Source: Escherichia phage PGN590
Direction: 5' to 3' (one strand)
DNA length: 49,043 nucleotides
Sequence record: NC_049830.1
Positions within the stretch are counted from its first letter, which is position 1, and the number at the start of each line of letters is the position of its first letter. Shown one piece after another: positions 6,755 through 43,143 of this stretch. Below the pieces are notes generated by a model. It ran no database searches. It was not told where the DNA came from and was given only the letters and a program-made list of their open reading frames with translations. Made by a program: the position numbers and the translations under genes.

Positions 6755-6774
6755 TTTTAACAAAAAGTGCTATT
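6755..6774 (-). promoter_or_regulatory. intergenic 20-bp repeat, promoter-like
   Basis: overlaps TAG of lipoprotein gene; GC hairpin in spacer; CATAAT downstream. Confidence 0.55.
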
Positions 6775-7508: not shown

Positions 7509-7829
7509 AGCATCTACTCCTTTTGTTGCGTTTAAACTGGATGCATTATTGCCTTGCCTCTCCTACATGTCAATATATTTTGTGTTTTAACAACAATTTT
7601 TGGCATGTGGCGCGTTTAAAGATAACAAAATGCTTCAGTTAAGTCATTGGTTTTTATGTTAAAAATGACCCTGTTGACTTGGTTGACGGAGGATTGCTTC
7701 ATACCCATATATATACATACAAAAATCACCACGCATCATCATTGATTAAAAAATATACAATCACACATACATATCACCACAAACAATACCAATCCACCAC
7801 ATACCCATAGAACAAGCACAACAGTAAAT

Positions 7830-7870
7830 AACAAATATAAATACATATATAACTAACTTATTGATTTTAT
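7830..7870. repeat. conserved block shared by both strand-switch control regions (copy 1)
   Basis: AACAAATATAAATACATATATAACTAACTTATTGATTTTAT; about 33/40 identical to 28024-28063; flanked by CA-rich tracts. Confidence 0.6.
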
Positions 7871-7922
7871 GGGTATATATATAAATTTTATTTTGTTCTT
7901 TTTGTTGATGAACGCCAATTCT

Positions 7923-7957
7923 GTTATCTCAAAGTGCGGAGGCTTATTTGAGATAAC
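7923..7957. repeat. perfect 11-bp inverted repeat with 13-nt loop
   Basis: GTTATCTCAAA ... TTTGAGATAAC in non-coding control region. Confidence 0.6.
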
Positions 7958-8107
7958 GCGGGGAACAGAAATAACAGTTGTGCGCGCCAGGATTGCAGGA
8001 AAGGATGCAAGAGGGCCACATTTCTCTATCCCCTCCACACAAAAAGTTAATCACTTGATTAAAATTGATCAAACTCAAAGTCTCACAATCCAGGTGATCG
8101 CGAATGA

Positions 8108-8150
8108 TTTATTCCTGTTATTCCTGATTAATGGAATAGATGGAATAATG
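8108..8150. promoter_or_regulatory. dyad-symmetric operator-like element
   Basis: TTATTCCTG TTATTCCTG attaat GGAATAGAT GGAATAATG; two direct 9-mers mirrored around ATTAAT, 12 bp upstream of promoter-like repeat. Confidence 0.5.
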
Positions 8151-8161
8151 ACCAGTCAGCA

Positions 8162-8180
8162 AATAGCACTTTTTGTTAAA
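8162..8180 (+). promoter_or_regulatory. intergenic repeat, promoter-like (first rightward promoter)
   Basis: TACATT 22 nt after TTGTTA; drives 8244 gene; dyad element just upstream. Confidence 0.55.
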
Positions 8181-8243
8181 CCTGAATTGCCATGATCGGG
8201 TACATTAGACACATCGAAACGAGATACCCATCAGGAGATAGCA

Positions 8244-9562: not shown

Positions 9563-9618
9563 ACGGTATGCGCCTGAATGGTATATTACATCCATCAACA
9601 ACGAACGAGGATTTAAAA

Positions 9619-9813
9619 ATGGAAAATCAAGTTGATGTTAAAGTTTTACAGCGTGACACCACTCACGAGAAAGGAATCTTTAAGAAAGGCGCTATCATCA
9701 CAATTGATATTGAGGATATGGTTGCGTACCACTCAGGGCTAACTTGGAACGTTGTTAAACATGGCAATGCTTTCAAACTGCGTGGATTCAATACTATTAT
9801 GGAGGTTGTGTAA
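9619..9813 (+). CDS. small hypothetical protein
   Basis: ATG 9619 after conserved leader CATCAACAACGAACGAGGATTTAAAA. Confidence 0.45.
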   Translation: MENQVDVKVLQRDTTHEKGIFKKGAIITIDIEDMVAYHSGLTWNVVKHGNAFKLRGFNTIMEVV

Positions 9814-14843: not shown

Positions 14844-15332
14844 TTACAGATCCTTAATGCAATATTTAAATTCCACGGCGCGGCGGTTGCGCAGTCCTTT
14901 AGACGTTTCTTTCTTTCCTGTTTTTGGATTTGTGTATTTTGTCCATCGCCATAACTGATTGCACGCTTCCATATAACGACCGTTATTAATCAGCTTAAGC
15001 ATGGTTGAATTTCTGAAAGCACCAGTACCAGCATTGTATGTGAATGAATACATTGCCGCTCGCATTGTATCAGGAATCTCAACCTTCACACGTTTATCAA
15101 CTTCATCCTTTGCGATCTTGATATGCTTTTCCAGTAGCGCATCGCACTCTCTCTGTGTGTACGTTTTACCTGGTATTACGTCAGGTCCAGTTATTCCGGC
15201 GCAAACCGTCCATATTCCAGCAATATCTTTGTACGGTTTATGTTTTACTCCTTCTATTTCCTCCAGTAATGGAGAAGTAAGAGCAAGAGCAACGCCGAAA
15301 GCCGCAGCGGTCACTCTTTGTTTTATACTCAT
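14844..15332 (-). CDS. endolysin (lysozyme-like, SAR-type N-terminus)
   Basis: hydrophobic N-terminal [17 protein letters not shown] then E..D..T catalytic spacing ([16 protein letters not shown]). Confidence 0.7.
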
Positions 15333-18416: not shown

Positions 18417-18831
18417 TCATCATGTGTTCTACAGCGATCATGAATTGCTTATATCCGTATGTTACGGCAGCGTATCCGCCAAGCTCGCGCACGCGGCGTA
18501 AGAAGGCTTTTTGCTCCTTGCTGACTGGTGAAGCCTTACCCTTGCCAGACTTATTGACGCGCTTCATCTCAATAGCCGCGAAAGGGTAGCGGCCTTTTAA
18601 TCCAATCAGGATGATAAAATCACTTACTCCCTTAACGAGTCCGGCTTGCTGATCCATCATTGCGGTGGCGATCCCCTTGTCGCCCTCGTTTTTCGTATGC
18701 CATGCCAGCAATTCAGGATGAGCATAACTCAACCATTGAAACGCCCCGATCTGGTGTGATTCCTCTTTTAGCGTATCCGTCGGATCTCTTTCGTAAAACT
18801 CCAGATAATCGCCTTTATCAGTCATTGGCAT
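18412..18831 (-). CDS. VRR-NUC-type PD-(D/E)xK nuclease
   Basis: GVSDFIIL and AIEMK motifs (D ... E-x-K); adjacent to helicase. Confidence 0.55.
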   Translation of the reverse strand: MPMTDKGDYLEFYERDPTDTLKEESHQIGAFQWLSYAHPELLAWHTKNEGDKGIATAMMDQQAGLVKGVSDFIILIGLKGRYPFAAIEMKRVNKSGKGKASPVSKEQKAFLRRVRELGGYAAVTYGYKQFMIAVEHMMK

Positions 18832-20952: not shown

Positions 20953-21426
20953 ATGAAAGAAAAGCGGATCGCGGTATCAACTGGCAAAATTGACAAACGC
21001 ACAATCAATGGCAATAACGGAACTCGACGTGGTAAAGATAAGAAAAAGCGCAAGCGCCCTACAGGATACTATGTTTTAAAAGATGAAGTGCGCGCAGGAC
21101 TAAAAGCACGGCTTGACATTCTTATTGAGTATTACGGAAGCGTGTCAGCAATGGCAAAGCGTCTTAACGTTAGCCAGCAAACTGTAAATCAGTGGCGTGT
21201 TCGAGGTATGATTTCAGCCGCTGGCGCTCAAAAGGTGCATAACGATTACAAGAAATATGGTTGTCAAGGCTATCGCGCTTCATTCTGCCGTCCAGATCTA
21301 CGATTTGATTCCAATGGCAAACCGCTCACAAAGAGATGTGATAAGCGTGAAATGTTGCGAGTAGTAAGAATGTCAGATTATGAACCTGGCGGATTCCTGT
21401 ATAAACCTGAAAGCACTAATTGCTAA
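20953..21426 (+). CDS. HTH DNA-binding protein (putative regulator)
   Basis: basic N-terminus, HTH-like SVSAMAKRLNVSQQTVNQW. Confidence 0.45.
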   Translation: MKEKRIAVSTGKIDKRTINGNNGTRRGKDKKKRKRPTGYYVLKDEVRAGLKARLDILIEYYGSVSAMAKRLNVSQQTVNQWRVRGMISAAGAQKVHNDYKKYGCQGYRASFCRPDLRFDSNGKPLTKRCDKREMLRVVRMSDYEPGGFLYKPESTNC

Positions 21427-21481
21427 AAACAATGCCTGGCATGATGTTATCATCTGTCAGGCTTTTTTGTTTGAGGTGTAT

Positions 21482-24781: not shown

Positions 24782-25099
24782 GTCTTTATGCCATTTGCTG
24801 ACATATCGCTTACAAATATTTTATATCTATTCCTGGTAATTTGGCGCACACCATTTGTCGTACCATAAATATTGCAAACTTTTTTAATTTTTTAACGTCA
24901 AAGAGAGCACACACAATATCTGATTAAGGTCAATCACCAATATCAATTATGAAATCGGCAATGTCAGGTTTTAACGGGCTTGGAAGTATGAGCGGAATGT
25001 TGTCAATAATGACCAATGGAAAACTTAATGCTCATCAAACTGAACTTGCAAAGCGAATTGCTGTTAAGGTTATTGCCGTTCTTGTGATGGATGAAAGTG

Positions 25100-27748: not shown

Positions 27749-28023
27749 GATTTGCCCTCATTGGTTGGTATGTCTGCATTGTAGCTATTTGATGCGTTTA
27801 GTCAATAGTTATTTTGTTTTTTCTGTTCTAACAACGTTCTCACCAACTTTGGTAACAAAACTTACATGTAAGAGATTGATAAATATCAGTGTTGTCTTTT
27901 TGTTCTCTTGTTCATCCATTTGCGCCGGATATAGATATATAGACACACAAACACTAACACATACACAACCAAATAAAAATTACCAGACACACAAAATCAC
28001 ACAAAACATAGATAACAAGAAAA

Positions 28024-28063
28024 AACAAATATAAATATATACACTACTAACTCATTGATTTAT
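28024..28063. repeat. conserved block shared by both strand-switch control regions (copy 2)
   Basis: AACAAATATAAATATATACACTACTAACTCATTGATTTAT; flanked by CA-rich and TATATA tracts. Confidence 0.6.
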
Positions 28064-28172
28064 ATATATGTATATATACTTATCTGTATGTATAGCGCTC
28101 TATTACTGTTCACTTTTTGAGCTAAATTTAAGCCTCCGCAGATTTGAGAACGAAGGAAAACAAAAAGAACAG

Positions 28173-28191
28173 AATAGCACTTTTTGCTAAA
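28173..28191 (+). promoter_or_regulatory. intergenic repeat (variant TTGCTAAA), promoter-like
   Basis: in control region 2; TATAGT at 28211-28216; drives lipoprotein gene. Confidence 0.5.
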
Positions 28192-28247
28192 CGCACGCCG
28201 CAAGATCGTGTATAGTTGCAACTAACAATAACTAAGGAGAAAACAAG

Positions 28248-32955: not shown

Positions 32956-33000
32956 GCTTTTTCACCTTTTGTGCTATTTGATTTGTTGAATTATACGGGC

Positions 33001-38233: not shown

Positions 38234-38860
38234 ATTTTGAATGCATCATTTCAAGTGCTTTTTGCTCCATGATTCGCAAGTCGTTTAGCGCCATCTCGCG
38301 ATCCTCAACCTTGTAAATCTCAAAAAGCATAGGCAAGACATTATAATCAAATCCGTAAGCACCACCGCCTGAACATCTCCATTGCGTTTGCATTGCGCAA
38401 AATATATCCCATGATTGCATCATGCTTTCATCAAATATAACCTCTGGCGGATCTTCTCCTTCATAGTCTGCCCTTGTAAGGCCAACAGCCTCAAGCTCTG
38501 CATCTGTCGGCGGTTTCTGATAAAACAGGTAAACCGCCCTTTTTAGTTTTTTACTCGCTGCCCCGCAAGCGCTTTCATGTATGCGCTAGTTAATCCGATT
38601 GCTGTTGCTGGGTAGTAATCAAGAAGCCGTTTAATATTTTCTTCGTTAAATTCATCATCAAGATTCCAACCAGAAGCAAGGAAGGTGATCATTTCAACAT
38701 CGCTCATTGGAGTATCTGACGTGTAGCGCTCGTGAATCTCACTTGTTTTGCGGTGGCGAACTGTGAAGATAATTGTTTGATCTTCTCCGTTAGGCATTGC
38801 AAATTCCACTGGTAATTTAAAGTCAGGAAGCGGCCCAATCGTCAATTTCATTTTTGACAT
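38232..38860 (-). CDS. tail assembly chaperone frameshift fusion (G-T-like) via -1 slip
   Basis: -1 frame from slippery site 38546-38552 is open through ORF 38232-38423; checked codon by codon. Confidence 0.55.
38543..38860 (-). CDS. tail assembly chaperone (lambda G-like)
   Basis: 105 aa acidic protein upstream of tape measure; ends ..QRVKN with slippery A_AAA_AAC. Confidence 0.65.
   Translation of the reverse strand: MSKMKLTIGPLPDFKLPVEFAMPNGEDQTIIFTVRHRKTSEIHERYTSDTPMSDVEMITFLASGWNLDDEFNEENIKRLLDYYPATAIGLTSAYMKALAGQRVKN
38546..38552 (-). other. -1 programmed ribosomal frameshift slippery site (A_AAA_AAC)
   Basis: last two sense codons of G-like gene; -1 frame open into downstream ORF. 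Confidence 0.55.
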
Positions 38861-38873
38861 TTCTTTCTCCTTG

Positions 38874-38892
38874 ATAGCACTTTTTGTTAAAA
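38874..38892 (+). promoter_or_regulatory. repeat copy oriented antisense to the late genes
   Basis: ATAGCACTTTTTGTTAAAA on plus strand between major tail and G genes; TATCAT 22 nt downstream. Confidence 0.4.
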
Positions 38893-38931
38893 GAATTGAT
38901 TATGAATCGTGTATCATGATTGTACAGTAAC

Positions 38932-38954
38932 AAAAAAAGGGGCGCAACGCCCCT
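38932..38954 (-). terminator. intrinsic terminator after major tail gene
   Basis: AGGGGCG-caa-CGCCCCT plus seven U on minus strand. Confidence 0.75.
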
Positions 38955-38959
38955 TGTGA

Positions 38960-39622
38960 TTATGCTACTTGAGAAGGTAGGAAGGTGAATCGACCTTTCA
39001 GGGATACAGAAAGGGAAACAGTTTCCATTTCGTTAACGGTCGTTTGTGGGATCTCGTTAAACGAAAGCACACCAGCCCAGCAACGCATCTCTTTTGCTTT
39101 TGGTACATACATGCGAAGAGCGGTTACTTCTCCTGATTCATCTGCTGAACGCAATAGCGGATAGATCGCGTTATCGTATTCGTGCGCAAAAGTGTAGGTA
39201 AGAGAAACGGCGCTCTTATATGTAGGTAACTGCTGTTCTTGATCGTCTGCCAAACACTGATAAGTGTAGTATTGCTGTTCGCCGCCGTCCTGCGACAAAT
39301 CTTGAACGCAAGGAATCTCAGTCCATGCATCAATTTTTGCAAAAGATGCAGTACCGCCAGACGGGAAAACGTTCTGATCAGTAGTATCTACACCTTCAAG
39401 AGTCACGCTTGTTTCTTCGCCGTTAGCCTTTACACGCATAACACGATCAATCAGCTTACCCCAAGAAGACGCAGTGATGATAACATAATCACCTTTCTTG
39501 TACGAAGTGCCGCCAGATGCAACGGTGAATACAGGATCTTTAGCGTTTGATACTGCCGTTGCTTGGATTTCGCTGCCGCGATTGCTCTCAACGAAAATTT
39601 GCGATCCATTTGGTAAATGCAT
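38960..39622 (-). CDS. major tail protein
   Basis: AAAGGAG RBS; position immediately upstream of chaperone genes; strong terminator after stop. Confidence 0.6.
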   Translation of the reverse strand: MHLPNGSQIFVESNRGSEIQATAVSNAKDPVFTVASGGTSYKKGDYVIITASSWGKLIDRVMRVKANGEETSVTLEGVDTTDQNVFPSGGTASFAKIDAWTEIPCVQDLSQDGGEQQYYTYQCLADDQEQQLPTYKSAVSLTYTFAHEYDNAIYPLLRSADESGEVTALRMYVPKAKEMRCWAGVLSFNEIPQTTVNEMETVSLSVSLKGRFTFLPSQVA

Positions 39623-39626
39623 AATT

Positions 39627-40025
39627 TTACTCCTTTGTTTCAATTCGAACATAAAATCTTACAGGGAGAAGCCAACCGCTTTCACTCTTGAGCGGCTTGT
39701 GAACTCTTGCACCCTCATATATATAACCATGCTCCAACATTTTACCATCGTAAAAGAATTGCGCAATCTCTTTAGCGAGAACGCGCGGCCTGTCAGTTCC
39801 GTAACCTGGTGGAAACACAATGCCAACCTGAATCATTCCGATATAGGAAACGCATTTTCGATCCAATGACAAGTATTCTGTATCAACTTCGGCATAGTCA
39901 AACTTCAACCACGGCGAACCGTCACCAGGTGGCGTAAACTCTACGTTTTCATAAGCGATCTTGAATCTGCTCTCGTATTCAGTCGCCAGCGCCTTACGCG
40001 CTGATAGCATTAATTCATAGTGCAT
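39627..40025 (-). CDS. tail terminator/completion protein (by position)
   Basis: synteny between head-tail joining genes and major tail gene. Confidence 0.45.
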   Translation of the reverse strand: MHYELMLSARKALATEYESRFKIAYENVEFTPPGDGSPWLKFDYAEVDTEYLSLDRKCVSYIGMIQVGIVFPPGYGTDRPRVLAKEIAQFFYDGKMLEHGYIYEGARVHKPLKSESGWLLPVRFYVRIETKE

Positions 40026-40458
40026 TTTTAGCCCTCGACTCTTTTATTGCTTCAGCCATATAAGATCTCAACTTAACCGCGACAATCCCAAGCACACCCG
40101 CTGGCGCTTGTTTTGAATGACCGTACTCAAGCGCGTTAGCGTAAATAAGCATATTTGAAAAATAAATGGCCCTTACTGCGCCGCCACCTCTCAATATTGC
40201 GTATATGGCGCGCTTGCCTTCCGCTATCGTTTTGTCGCCGTGCTTATCGTACTGATTAAGCGCATACAATGGCGGCTTGTTTGCTGTTACCTGCCAGTTT
40301 GCACGGTAACGACCAGTATCTACCGGAGAACGCTTAACCAAATCTGTGTGTACTTTTTCGGCGAACAACTCCACGCAATCTTTTAGTCCACTATCAACGG
40401 CGTTTATCCACGCATCAATGTTGCCGTGAAATTCCCTTATCGTGTAGTTTTTAGCCAT
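40015..40458 (-). CDS. tail completion protein (HK97 gp10-like motif)
   Basis: RSPVDTGRYRANW resembles the VDTG..R signature of HK97 gp10-type tail components. Confidence 0.5.
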   Translation of the reverse strand: MAKNYTIREFHGNIDAWINAVDSGLKDCVELFAEKVHTDLVKRSPVDTGRYRANWQVTANKPPLYALNQYDKHGDKTIAEGKRAIYAILRGGGAVRAIYFSNMLIYANALEYGHSKQAPAGVLGIVAVKLRSYMAEAIKESRAKNAL

Positions 40459-40822
40459 GTACGGAAATCCTTCTCAAAATAGGCCGATAAGCAACAGTGA
40501 CATTAGTTTGTCTGATTGGTCTTGCTTCAACTACAACATATAATTCACCATCAACATCAATATGATACCCGTTCTTAATTTCAACTTTATTGTTAAAAAC
40601 TCCCAACTTATCGGTTACTCGTATTGTCTCTCCGTCAACCTCGCGGAATTTTGGGGAGCGAATTAAACCTTTAATCATTACACTGATCTCTGGCTTTTCT
40701 ACTTCTTCGCCTCCGATGATTTCAACGCTTCCACGCTGCGTTATGCACTTAAACTCACCGTTGTCATCACTGAAGAAGTTTATTCCTTCAGTTGCCATTC
40801 TTGCGATCTCGTTATAGTTCAT
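40451..40822 (-). CDS. head-tail adaptor/closure protein (by position)
   Basis: ATG 40820-40822 with GGAG RBS overlapping upstream stop. Confidence 0.4.
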
Positions 40823-41235
40823 TTGCAACGTCTCCGAAATCCAGTCACAAGGCCAAATCCACCGCCTTTCTTACGATTTAGCGTTTCATACATTTTTCCC
40901 CAGGGAGTTTGTCTAATCTCTTTTCCGCCAGAGTCGCCTGACACTCGATCAAAAGTCTGGCTAAATTCACCAGTCAGGGAAAATGATGCAACTCGCCGCG
41001 AGTAACTTTCTACGCTTTCCCCTTCTTGCTTCATTGCTCCGTCAAGCGTCATAAGGTGCAACGTATAAAGAGCAACCGCTTTGGGATATGATTCTTTAAA
41101 CCGCTTCTTGCAAACAAATTCCTTTGCAAGATCAATCCATGCCGCCATTAAATCTGGATCAATCTGCTTCATCGGTGGCGCCAATTTCACGATTTGCTGC
41201 GTGATTTCTGCGTCAGTGAAAAATTCATCAACCAT
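40819..41235 (-). CDS. head-tail connector protein (by position)
   Basis: GGAGGAA RBS; synteny downstream of capsid gene. Confidence 0.4.
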
Positions 41236-41282
41236 TGTGTTTCCTCCAGATATGACAAAGGGCGCTTATAGCGCCCTCTTTA

Positions 41283-41555
41283 TTAATAGATGCCGCCGTC
41301 TTCAAGTTCGGCTTTGCTCTTGCCCTCTCGCGGGTCTTTTTTACGTTTGCTTGCTGCGCTCTGTTTGATTTCTTCGTTCAATGCGGAGTTATCTTTAACC
41401 TCCAGATCGCCTTTTGCAATTAGATATTCAAACGCGCTTGTTTTCAATTTTGATTCTTCTACGTCAAACTCTTTTCCTGGGTGATAATGCTCACCATCAA
41501 CAATGATAAGGCACACGCCGGAAACCTTTAGCGTTACAGTTTTTTCTTTAGCCAT
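41283..41555 (-). CDS. hypothetical head-associated protein
   Basis: GGAGG RBS directly after terminator hairpin 41577-41598. Confidence 0.4.
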   Translation of the reverse strand: MAKEKTVTLKVSGVCLIIVDGEHYHPGKEFDVEESKLKTSAFEYLIAKGDLEVKDNSALNEEIKQSAASKRKKDPREGKSKAELEDGGIY

Positions 41556-41570
41556 TTCATAACCTCCAAT

Positions 41571-41598
41571 AAAAAAGGGAATCCAGTTAAGGATTCCC
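41571..41598 (-). terminator. intrinsic terminator after major capsid gene
   Basis: GGGAATCC-agttaa-GGATTCCC plus six U; GGAGG RBS follows. Confidence 0.7.
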
Positions 41599-41611
41599 CA
41601 ATGCTATACGA

Positions 41612-42586
41612 TTAACCTGTTTTTTTCAAGCCAGTAATAAGCACTAGCGTAAACGGACGGTAAATCGTCAGGCCAGTGCATTTTGAAGTGCACGGAACTT
41701 TGAAATGCAGATCTTTTGGTTGCGCCGGAAGCATGTTAAATGCTTCTGGAATTTCGATAGACATGTTCATCGGGTCTTTCTCATATACCAGGCAACCTTT
41801 CGTTCCAGTGCCATCAATATCCTCAAGCTCTGCGATTGAGTCGAAGGTTATTCCGCTGTTTTGTTTCTGGAAGTATTCCAGATAACTTTCAGTGGTGTTT
41901 TCCATTCGAACAGAAAGAACCTTGCGCATAGACGGCGGAATCAGGATATTGGTTGCGCGGTGCTGACCATTGGTGATGGTCTGAATGGTTTCAATAGCCT
42001 TTTCCAGTTCATCAGATGCTGCCTGCGGGAACTTAGTGTTTTCATCAGCACTTAACCAGCCAGTTGACACGATCTTTGTCAGGTTAGGATGTTCAAACAC
42101 CGAAAGAATCTTATGCGGCTTTGAACCCTTAAACACCAGGCGGTTAACTTCCTGATCATGAGCGTTTTGCGCTGCGTTTGCCTTGCGAGTCGAAAGGCTC
42201 TTACCAGTGCGCTGACCAGCCTTGATTTCGTCAATGGAGATCAAGAACGCGTTACCCAGGCGGAACACCTTGCCAAACTCGCTTGACATTAAAGCGTCAA
42301 CAGTTGGCAGATCGTCGGTGTAATCAGCGATAATTTTTGCGTAACCAACCCTGTCAAACATCTGATATTCAAAAGTCTTATCAGTATCAGAAAGCTCATT
42401 AGTTACAGGGAACACACGAAGCGCTGAACCTGCCGGATACTCTTTCTCGTAAGCAGTTGAGCGGATCTTGTGAAGCTCTTGCGCCGTCCAGATACCCATA
42501 TCAGAAGCATCACCCTTAACGCCGCGAGTAGCCAGATAGCTAGAAACAATATCCGCATCTAGCTGATCAAATTTTTCTTTTTCCAT
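41612..42586 (-). CDS. major capsid protein
   Basis: 324 aa; GGAGGAAGAA RBS; position between scaffold/decoration genes and head-tail genes. Confidence 0.8.
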   Translation of the reverse strand: MEKEKFDQLDADIVSSYLATRGVKGDASDMGIWTAQELHKIRSTAYEKEYPAGSALRVFPVTNELSDTDKTFEYQMFDRVGYAKIIADYTDDLPTVDALMSSEFGKVFRLGNAFLISIDEIKAGQRTGKSLSTRKANAAQNAHDQEVNRLVFKGSKPHKILSVFEHPNLTKIVSTGWLSADENTKFPQAASDELEKAIETIQTITNGQHRATNILIPPSMRKVLSVRMENTTESYLEYFQKQNSGITFDSIAELEDIDGTGTKGCLVYEKDPMNMSIEIPEAFNMLPAQPKDLHFKVPCTSKCTGLTIYRPFTLVLITGLKKTG

Positions 42587-42632
42587 TTTCTTCCTCCATA
42601 TATAAAGGTCGTTAGTATGTAACGGACCAATG

Positions 42633-42650
42633 ATAGCATTTTTTGTTAAA
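42633..42650 (+). promoter_or_regulatory. repeat copy oriented antisense to the late genes
   Basis: ATAGCATTTTTTGTTAAA on plus strand upstream of capsid gene; weak TATGAG 22 nt downstream. Confidence 0.35.
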
Positions 42651-42669
42651 CGTGCAACCTAATTTTGTG

Positions 42670-43104
42670 TTATGAGTCAATGCTTACCCCGACAATATAT
42701 GAATCATGATCAACCTTTACATGTTCGCCAGTAAAGATCCAACCGCTCAGTAAGTCGCCTTCACTGTATGCCGCATCTCCATCTTGCGTTACAAATACTT
42801 TATCTCCATATTCTGGCGCTTCGCTCTCAGAAGTTAAGCACCAAACAATACCTCGACTAACAACACTAATTGGATCACCATCCTCATATATGCACGAGTC
42901 CAGCGGCCTTACTGCCACGCCAATAACAAGATCCCCATTAATACTGGCTATTTTGTATCCATTTGTTATATGTGATAGTCGAACAATCTTACCTGGCGCA
43001 ATAAATTCATCTCCGCACACGAAAGATCCGTTAATCACCATTATTGAAGAATCGACCATGCACCCTGGCGACTCAACGCCAACAATGACTGAATAATCAC
43101 TCAT
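42670..43104 (-). CDS. head structural/decoration-like protein (paralogue of 43151-43663)
   Basis: start set to ATG 43102-43104 (MSDYSV, GGAG RBS); shares GxVWxL...DGxxxxxSGxIxxxWIxTG pattern with neighbour. Confidence 0.45.
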   Translation of the reverse strand: MSDYSVIVGVESPGCMVDSSIMVINGSFVCGDEFIAPGKIVRLSHITNGYKIASINGDLVIGVAVRPLDSCIYEDGDPISVVSRGIVWCLTSESEAPEYGDKVFVTQDGDAAYSEGDLLSGWIFTGEHVKVDHDSYIVGVSIDS

Positions 43105-43120
43105 GAGAAACTCCAAATAT

Positions 43121-43143
43121 AAAAAAGGCGCTCAGTGAGCGCC
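43121..43143 (-). terminator. intrinsic terminator between paralogous head genes
   Basis: GGCGCTC-agt-GAGCGCC plus six U; GGAG RBS follows. Confidence 0.7.

Follow-up and report, generated by a model that had tools for sequence, protein, structure and literature searches.

In the genome of Escherichia phage PGN590 (sequence record NC_049830.1), which was analysed over its full length of 49,043 nucleotides and is called the window below, a dispersed short repeat corresponds in sequence and geometry to a consensus marbox, the asymmetric site type bound by the MarA/SoxS/Rob/RamA regulators. Two copies of this repeat are reversed relative to the late structural genes that surround them, and each lies on a predicted sigma-70 promoter of these genes, one within the promoter of the major capsid gene and the other beside a promoter, designated P(G) here, of the G-like tape-measure chaperone gene. 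The best explanation overall, which we hold with slightly better than even confidence, is that the reversed marboxes exert negative control on the two late promoters and that the copy at the tail site additionally gives rise to a non-coding antisense RNA.

The window is assigned by sequence to a T1-like siphovirus of the Drexlerviridae (Hanrivervirus), because a 5.5-kb stretch at this locus shares 96-97% identity with Escherichia phages vojen, herni and KarlJaspers and with Shigella phage pSf-1. Its late structural genes occupy the minus strand from approximately 49.0 kb down to 28.5 kb. An initial annotation had placed two plus-strand copies of the repeat opposite to their flanking genes, and both are indeed present: ATAGCACTTTTTGTTAAA at 38874-38891(+) between the minus-strand chaperone and major tail genes, and ATAGCATTTTTTGTTAAA at 42633-42650(+) between the minus-strand capsid and cement genes. 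The consensus marbox identity of the repeat was missing from that annotation, as was a second gene-sense promoter whose -10 hexamer lies beside the antisense -10 hexamer of the tail site.

Repeat family and marbox identity

The 19-mer form of the repeat has 16 matches with at most three mismatches in the window, compared to 0.07 expected from shuffled sequences, while a looser consensus, ATAGCACNNNTTGNTAAA (ATAGCAC-N3-TTG-N-TAAA), retrieves 21 copies with at most two mismatches. Only the copies at 38874-38891(+) and 42633-42650(+), out of these 21, oppose their flanking genes. In each of the 14 other close copies of the 19-mer set, the same strand carries a -10-like hexamer 19-20 nt downstream and a ribosome-binding site with an ATG 60-95 nt downstream; neither reversed copy is followed by such a ribosome-binding site and ATG. 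The most conserved block of the repeat is GCAC. T and A bases dominate the T subtype (CTTTTTGTTAAA), whose T tract is interrupted in the GAA and AAA subtypes.

The repeat family has already been published. In the 2024 re-annotation of phage TLS, the same element is described as a 21-nt direct repeat, aaATAGCACnnnTTGnTAAAA, with 21 copies, 18 of them intergenic, which lie about 76 nt upstream of start codons and fall into T, A and G subtypes; comparable repeats are mentioned for T1, Rtp and Rogue1 (PMC11447400). The authors suggested a stoperator, an enhancer site or an UP element, and listed the function of the repeat among their open questions (PMC11447400). According to the text of that paper all repeats are oriented with transcription, while its Table S1 has DR7 on the negative strand (15044..15024), immediately before the major head gene, which is on the plus strand (PMC11447400). 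Our scan of TLS returned one reversed copy only, at 15025-15042, which is the capsid-site copy and identical to DR7. The TLS paper does not comment on a marbox or on reversed copies (PMC11447400). Three points appear to be new: that the repeat is a class II marbox of the consensus type, that the reversed copies are conserved throughout the family, and that they are situated on two late sigma-70 promoters.

The marbox consensus derived from chromatin immunoprecipitation sequencing is the asymmetric GCAHWWWWTGYYAAA (AYnGCACnnWnnRYYAAAYn) (PMC6900184). It has 16 exact matches in the window, with 0.18 expected, and both reversed copies are among them; a longer form, AYNGCACNNWNNRYYAAA, has 15 matches with 0.07 expected. 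In all subtypes the variation of the repeat is confined to positions at which the marbox itself is degenerate, namely position 10 (T/A, corresponding to W) and position 14 (T/C, corresponding to Y). Comparison with the marbox of the Escherichia coli mar operator, the sequence of which was verified in E. coli genomes, shows 15 of 18 positions to be identical in the copy at 28174.

The geometry agrees as well. In the E. coli micF promoter, read directly as ACAGCACTGAATGTCAAAAC, the distance from AAA to TAGAAT is 20 nt, and 37 of the 41 copies of the window and TLS have AAA at the same spacing, 19-20 nt before a (T/C)AnnnT hexamer. The phage marboxes are in forward orientation with their centre at about -40.5 relative to the predicted start. 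Their -10 hexamers are TATAAT, CATAAT, TATAGT, TACATT and similar sequences, and no -35 element is recognisable, the window and TLS copies agreeing with TTGACA, on average, at 1.92 of the 6 bases where a -35 element would lie. In Salmonella, class II promoters have a mean -35 match of 1.9 and are described as having no -35 element and a canonical -10 element (PMC10268841). Class II marboxes are in general forward and centred between -36 and -55, with that of micF near -41 (PMC12052159; PMC8811837). A forward marbox over the -35 position is found at the sense copies and, on the plus strand, at the tail-site copy, whereas the capsid-site copy has no -10 hexamer on its own strand and does not have this arrangement. 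By sequence and geometry the repeat is thus a consensus marbox of class II, and we infer from this agreement that it is bound by proteins of the MarA/SoxS/Rob/RamA type.

In comparison with micF-type class II promoters, the phage promoters share the exact consensus, the forward site, the AAA 19-20 nt before the -10 hexamer, the missing -35 element and the normal -10 element. They differ in that 16 exact consensus sites are packed into 49 kb of a virulent phage genome, that the phage sites are near-perfect while host class II marboxes are degenerate, and that one complete copy lies antisense inside an operon. The middle promoters of phage T4, with their MotA box, and the Mor-dependent promoters of phage Mu also use an activator site in place of the -35 element; their activators are phage-encoded, and T4 needs AsiA in addition. 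The repeat promoters resemble them in combining a sigma-70 -10 element and no -35 element with an asymmetric upstream protein site. Unlike in T4 and Mu, no phage-encoded activator was detected here, and the site matches the consensus of a host regulator. A tblastn search of the window for a MarA/SoxS homologue gave a best E value of 1, and a Pfam scan of 40 phage proteins revealed no HTH_18 or AraC domain. MarA-family regulators are described for enteric bacteria (PMC12052159), and the named hosts of the relatives are all Enterobacteriaceae, save for a few records under Campylobacter, Streptococcus and Vibrio. Our literature searches found no link between the marbox, Rob or SoxS and T1-like phages.

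Could the repeat instead be an A/T-rich, UP-like element for the alpha subunits of the polymerase or a stoperator-like silencer, with the reversed copies acting as orientation-independent enhancers or being leftovers? Both options were raised by the TLS authors (PMC11447400), and the T/A-rich T subtype would be in line with the former. We consider this very improbable, as the repeat spans approximately -50 to -33 and covers the -35 position, whereas an UP element extends from -59 to -38 upstream of a -35 element, which is absent here. The invariant GCAC and the broken T tract of the GAA and AAA subtypes are likewise not those of an UP element, and a reversed copy within a promoter spacer cannot be the UP element of that promoter. 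Stoperators, in turn, sit inside transcribed regions, while the repeat keeps a fixed distance of 19-20 nt to a -10 hexamer.

Other known sites were also compared. The repeat resembles a sigma-54 promoter (TGGCAC-N5-TTGC, with GG and GC elements 10 bp apart and a start about 12 nt after GC) only superficially; TAGCAC-N3-TTG has AG in place of GG, its spacing is 2 bp short, and a sigma-70 -10 hexamer follows about 20 nt later, which rules this candidate out. TTGnTA as a displaced -35 element was ruled out since the spacer would be 21-22 nt long, and hand comparison with the consensus sequences gave no fit to IHF, Fis, CRP or FNR sites.

Reversed copies in relatives and the capsid promoter

The analysis of conservation covered the surroundings of major tail protein homologues at 57 loci, with repeat copies classed by position only. 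A reversed copy is located just after the major tail gene in 30 of these loci (28 distinct sequences) and upstream of the capsid gene in 40 (37 distinct sequences). Phage T1 carries both, and place and orientation are kept across the Drexlerviridae. Because they are retained in so many loci, T1 included, the reversed copies are, as judged from the sequences, not a product of chance. Klebsiella-type phages, with 54% protein identity, carry the capsid-site copy only, as does TLS. In the Klebsiella-type phages this copy is of the GAA subtype (GCACGAATTGCTAAA). This change of subtype argues that the motif itself is under selection or recognised, and that it is not only an inherited spacer.

The elements of the capsid site are as follows.

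42633-42650 (+): capsid-site repeat/marbox ATAGCATTTTTTGTTAAA, reversed relative to the capsid gene and covering approximately -10 to -27 of the predicted capsid promoter
42652-42657 (-): -35 element TTGCAC of the capsid promoter; TTGCAC, TTGACG (T1), TTGACC or TTGCTG in relatives, always 16 nt from the -10 element
42630-42635 (-): -10 element TATCAT of the capsid promoter, preceded by TGC (extended -10); TAT is the reverse complement of the first three marbox bases
42607-42628 (-): hairpin GGTCCGTTA...TAACGACC followed by TTTATATAT, beginning 2 nt after the capsid -10 element; the predicted start at about 42623 lies in its 5' arm
41612-42586 (-): major capsid protein gene, predicted to be transcribed from the promoter in which the reversed marbox lies
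42670-43116 (-): cement protein gene, upstream of the capsid-site copy

The minus-strand arrangement TTGCAC (42657-42652)-16 nt-TATCAT (42635-42630), which the initial annotation had pointed out, proved to be the conserved part of this site. The gene-sense pattern TTGnnn-16-TATnnT occurs in 36 of the 37 distinct capsid-site sequences, as TTGCAC...TATCAT in the window, TTGACG...TATTAT in T1 and TTGACC...TATTCT in Klebsiella-type phages. As a control, the sense copies of the repeat have no comparable -35 element, and a T is found at the equivalent last -10 base in only 6 of 38. An antisense TAnnnT on the strand of the marbox is present in just 2 of the 37 sequences, and part of the stretch in question is the reverse complement of the stop codon of the upstream gene. 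The reversed marbox supplies the entire spacer of the capsid promoter, the TG of its extended -10 element and the first three bases of the -10 element itself.

A marbox over the spacer or -10 element of a sigma-70 promoter is the position associated with repression, and this is the position found at the capsid site. At pbpG, a marbox overlapping the promoter spacer leads to repression by MarA, SoxS and Rob (PMC12052159). The capsid site resembles pbpG in that its marbox covers the promoter spacer, and here it extends over the extended -10 and -10 elements as well. It differs in that the target would be a strong late viral promoter and that repression is deduced from position; the published text on pbpG does not permit orientation and register to be compared. 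A simple promoter scan misses both late promoters, with TTGCAC and TTGCGC each scoring 3 of 6, and the GenBank record of T1 has terminators annotated and no promoters at the tail or capsid site.

Several hairpins were noted around the capsid gene. Transcripts from the cement gene would form the full terminator hairpin at 42607-42628, whereas RNAs initiated at the capsid promoter would not. Elsewhere in the family this hairpin is formed by different sequences, in T1 by AAGCCGTG...CACGGCTT followed by TTTTTT. The hairpins at 41259-41277 and 43127-43143 have terminator scores on both strands and could delimit antisense transcription, if there is any, in the region of the head-tail joining genes.

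The tail-site copy and promoter P(G)

At the tail site, the following elements were located.

38874-38891 (+): tail-site repeat/marbox ATAGCACTTTTTGTTAAA, antisense to the late genes and adjoining the ribosome-binding site of the opposite-strand G-like chaperone gene
38892-38911 (+): spacer of 20 nt that separates the marbox from the antisense -10 element; its length is conserved and its sequence is not (information profile, alignment)
38912-38917 (+): antisense -10 element TATCAT, a conserved hexamer at the spacing of micF
38919-38924 (-): -10 element TACAAT of P(G), a predicted gene-sense sigma-70 promoter of the chaperone and tape-measure genes, with its start expected at about 38912
38942-38947 (-): -35 element TTGCGC of P(G), within the terminator hairpin (loop and 3' arm); the 17-nt spacing is kept although the hairpin sequence differs between lineages
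38937-38955 (-): intrinsic terminator of the major tail gene, AAGGGGCG TTG CGCCCCTT followed by TTTTTGTTAC (hairpin 38939-38953)
38543-38860 (-): G-like tape-measure chaperone gene, named from the annotation of relatives, downstream of the tail site
38960-39652 (-): major tail protein gene, whose 3' end is complementary to the predicted antisense RNA

In all 28 distinct tail-site sequences, TAnnnT lies exactly 20 nt after the AAA of the marbox. The middle bases of the hexamer vary (TAGGAT, TACGAT, TAGAGT, TAGCAT, TATCAT and others), and conservation of the 20-nt spacer is low. Because the -10 hexamer stays at a fixed distance while the spacer and the middle bases vary, the tail-site copy probably functions as an antisense promoter. 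That it represents a complete promoter of the usual phage type, pointing antisense, is well supported at the level of sequence. Its predicted start, deduced from the position of the hexamer, is a conserved A at about 38924.

An RNA starting there would read through the complement of the major tail terminator hairpin into the antisense strand of the major tail gene. The terminator folds with -19.5 kcal/mol in the gene-sense direction and with -15.9 kcal/mol in the antisense direction. The length of the antisense RNA is uncertain, because the T run that follows the hairpin on the antisense strand is poor in T1 and moderate in the window. A protein-coding transcript was ruled out, as no conserved open reading frame (ORF) occurs downstream of the antisense start in eight lineages. 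Furthermore, no Rfam family reaches its gathering score in the window, the region of the antisense RNA included.

On the opposite strand, the P(G) pattern TTGnnn-17-TAnAAT is kept in 26 of 27 distinct sequences despite differing hairpins, and it is also present in lineages without the tail-site marbox, namely those labelled L006, L008 and L032 in our set, the Klebsiella-type phages and TLS. The tail marbox module is in effect an insertion of about 45 nt between P(G) and the ribosome-binding site of the chaperone gene, which would add a competing, marbox-dependent promoter. The antisense -10 (38912-38917) and the P(G) -10 (38924-38919) lie on opposite strands 1 bp apart, and each predicted start is the first base of the other hexamer. 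P(G) and the antisense promoter would not be occupied together, because both would melt the same DNA. The two predicted RNAs would run away from each other, with no overlap.

Bidirectional promoters that share a -10 region form mutually exclusive pairs, for which an 18-bp arrangement is commonly described. The tail site resembles such pairs in having opposite-strand hexamers 1 bp apart, so that only one open complex would form at a time. It differs from the 18-bp arrangement in its crossed hexamers, with starts about 12 bp apart that point away from each other, and in its partners, one of which would depend on a marbox while the other has its -35 element in a terminator loop.

The overlap of terminator and promoter, with the -35 TTGCGC in the terminator loop and the -10 element 17 nt further on (window 38919-38955, minus strand), is a family-wide feature, with or without the reversed marbox. 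It is located at about 6690-6740 in L006, L008, L032, L035, L044 and L053, and at 18710-18760 in TLS (L060). Reading the tail-site copy as a gene-sense extended -10 promoter (TGCTATCAA) was ruled out by hand inspection of the alignment, in which the last base is not conserved; this candidate also has no -35 element at the expected spacing and overlaps the ribosome-binding site.

The initial annotation had proposed above all that both reversed copies are promoters of antisense RNA, with an element active in either orientation as its alternative, but the two sites proved to be unlike each other. For the tail site the proposal of an antisense promoter is borne out by the hexamer at 20 nt in 28 of 28 sequences, whereas the 2 of 37 sequences with an antisense TAnnnT make an antisense RNA at the capsid site unlikely. 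That the two copies are both plain antisense promoters, producing regulatory antisense RNAs against the mRNAs of the tail and capsid regions, therefore seems improbable to us. The tail-site copy has all features of the sense promoters, and the capsid-site copy of the window has TGt-TATGAG at the right spacing. At the capsid site, however, a T is rarely the last base of this would-be -10, its conserved TTA corresponds to the stop codon of the upstream gene, and what is conserved is the -35 and -10 pair of the gene-sense strand. At the tail site, the antisense RNA has neither a conserved ORF nor an Rfam family, it would not overlap the P(G) mRNA because the predicted starts point away from each other, and the module is absent from many relatives.

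Elsewhere in the window, further features of the repeat family were observed. A forward copy of the A subtype, ATAGCACAAAAGGTGAAA, at 32960-32977 (-), lies on the ribosome-binding site of the J-like gene for the large tail fibre, whose ATG follows 5 nt later; no -10 hexamer is present downstream of this copy, which is kept in TLS at 24908-24925. The copies at 6756, 8163, 9038, 9544, 11595 and 17378 are followed directly after the -10 hexamer by a conserved leader, CATCGAAACGAG or CATCAACAACGA, which may be a shared element of the 5' untranslated region. The long non-coding regions 7509-8243, which separates divergent gene blocks, and 27749-28247 have in common a C/A-rich and then A/T-rich stretch (7757-7867 and 27951-28061; 79% identity over about 200 nt) that may represent an origin or a group of immediate-early signals. 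In addition, the small early ORF at 9568-9813 (+) matches the Pfam family PF25180, "Phage antiviral trigger protein Gp54", with an E value of 4e-36.

Proposed control of the late promoters and its meaning

In the regulation that we propose, a host protein of the MarA family would bind all copies of the repeat and activate the sense promoters. At the tail site, where both -10 elements would melt the same dozen bp, polymerase recruited to the marbox promoter would exclude P(G). This polymerase would be diverted to a non-coding antisense transcript, which would run through the major tail terminator and head-on into late transcription. At the capsid site, the protein bound to the marbox would compete with sigma-70 and act as a repressor, as described for pbpG. 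More speculatively, the structural genes would be expressed with a delay, once replicating phage DNA has titrated the factor or the factor has decayed.

Several points weigh against this proposal. Our literature searches found no binding, transcription-start, RNA sequencing or expression data for T1-like phages, and the predicted starts rest solely on hexamer positions. In the absence of stress, E. coli contains little MarA or SoxS and keeps Rob sequestered as inactive aggregates (PMC12052159). T1-like phages grow well on laboratory strains, and the paper on a Keio-collection screen of the T1-like phage LL5 never mentions rob, marA or soxS; redundancy among these three genes could hide them in such a screen. 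TLS, the Klebsiella-type phages and a few close relatives lack the tail-site module, which thus appears from its distribution to be dispensable. The spacer of the capsid promoter, for its part, could in principle be conserved by descent alone.

The low level or sequestration of the host activators in unstressed cells, set beside the dependence of almost every early phage gene on the element, and the silence of the LL5 paper on rob, marA and soxS may point to a different reader. The architecture would then be as described, but the site would be read by a phage-encoded protein, either of an unrecognised fold or the Cro/YdaS-like helix-turn-helix (HTH) protein encoded at 20953-21426, and the likeness to the marbox would be convergence or mimicry. 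This 157-amino-acid HTH protein (plus strand) matches Pfam YdaS_toxin with an E value of 5e-7, just below the family cut-off, and P22_Cro with 1e-5, and its gene occupies the position of a TLS gene annotated as "transcriptional regulator". Still, we consider such a reader rather unlikely. The searches described above revealed no MarA/AraC-type protein in the window, and a Cro-like protein with a single HTH would be expected on a palindrome, not on an 18-bp asymmetric bipartite site. Were nearly all early promoters to require a factor synthesised only after infection, the first round of transcription would have no explanation, and the marbox match extends to the pattern of degeneracy and the spacing of micF. 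The last codons of the HTH protein gene contain a marbox copy, AAAGCACTAATTGCTAAA, at 21410-21427 (+), which appears to drive the primase gene.

Returning to the host regulators, a wider form of the proposal is possible, if doubtful: T1-like phages may have wired nearly their whole transcription programme to host MarA/SoxS/Rob/RamA. Class II marboxes would drive the early and middle genes, and the reversed ones would repress the capsid and tail-chaperone promoters, so that one factor would set both early-on and late-off. If this is true, release would come from titration, with about 20 sites per genome copy, or from the decay of unstable activators after host shut-off.

The marbox reading turns the open question of the TLS paper on the function of the repeat (PMC11447400) into simple experiments. 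The two reversed copies are its informative exceptions, in which the element lies over ordinary late promoters, once in the manner of an operator and once as a competing antisense promoter. They suggest how the timing of structural genes could be achieved in a phage that has neither a sigma factor nor a late activator of recognisable type. Should the phage promoters be driven by host stress regulators, infection by this very common group of enterobacterial phages would be open to modulation by bile salts, salicylate, oxidants and some antibiotics, which, if true, bears on phage therapy and on laboratory contamination.

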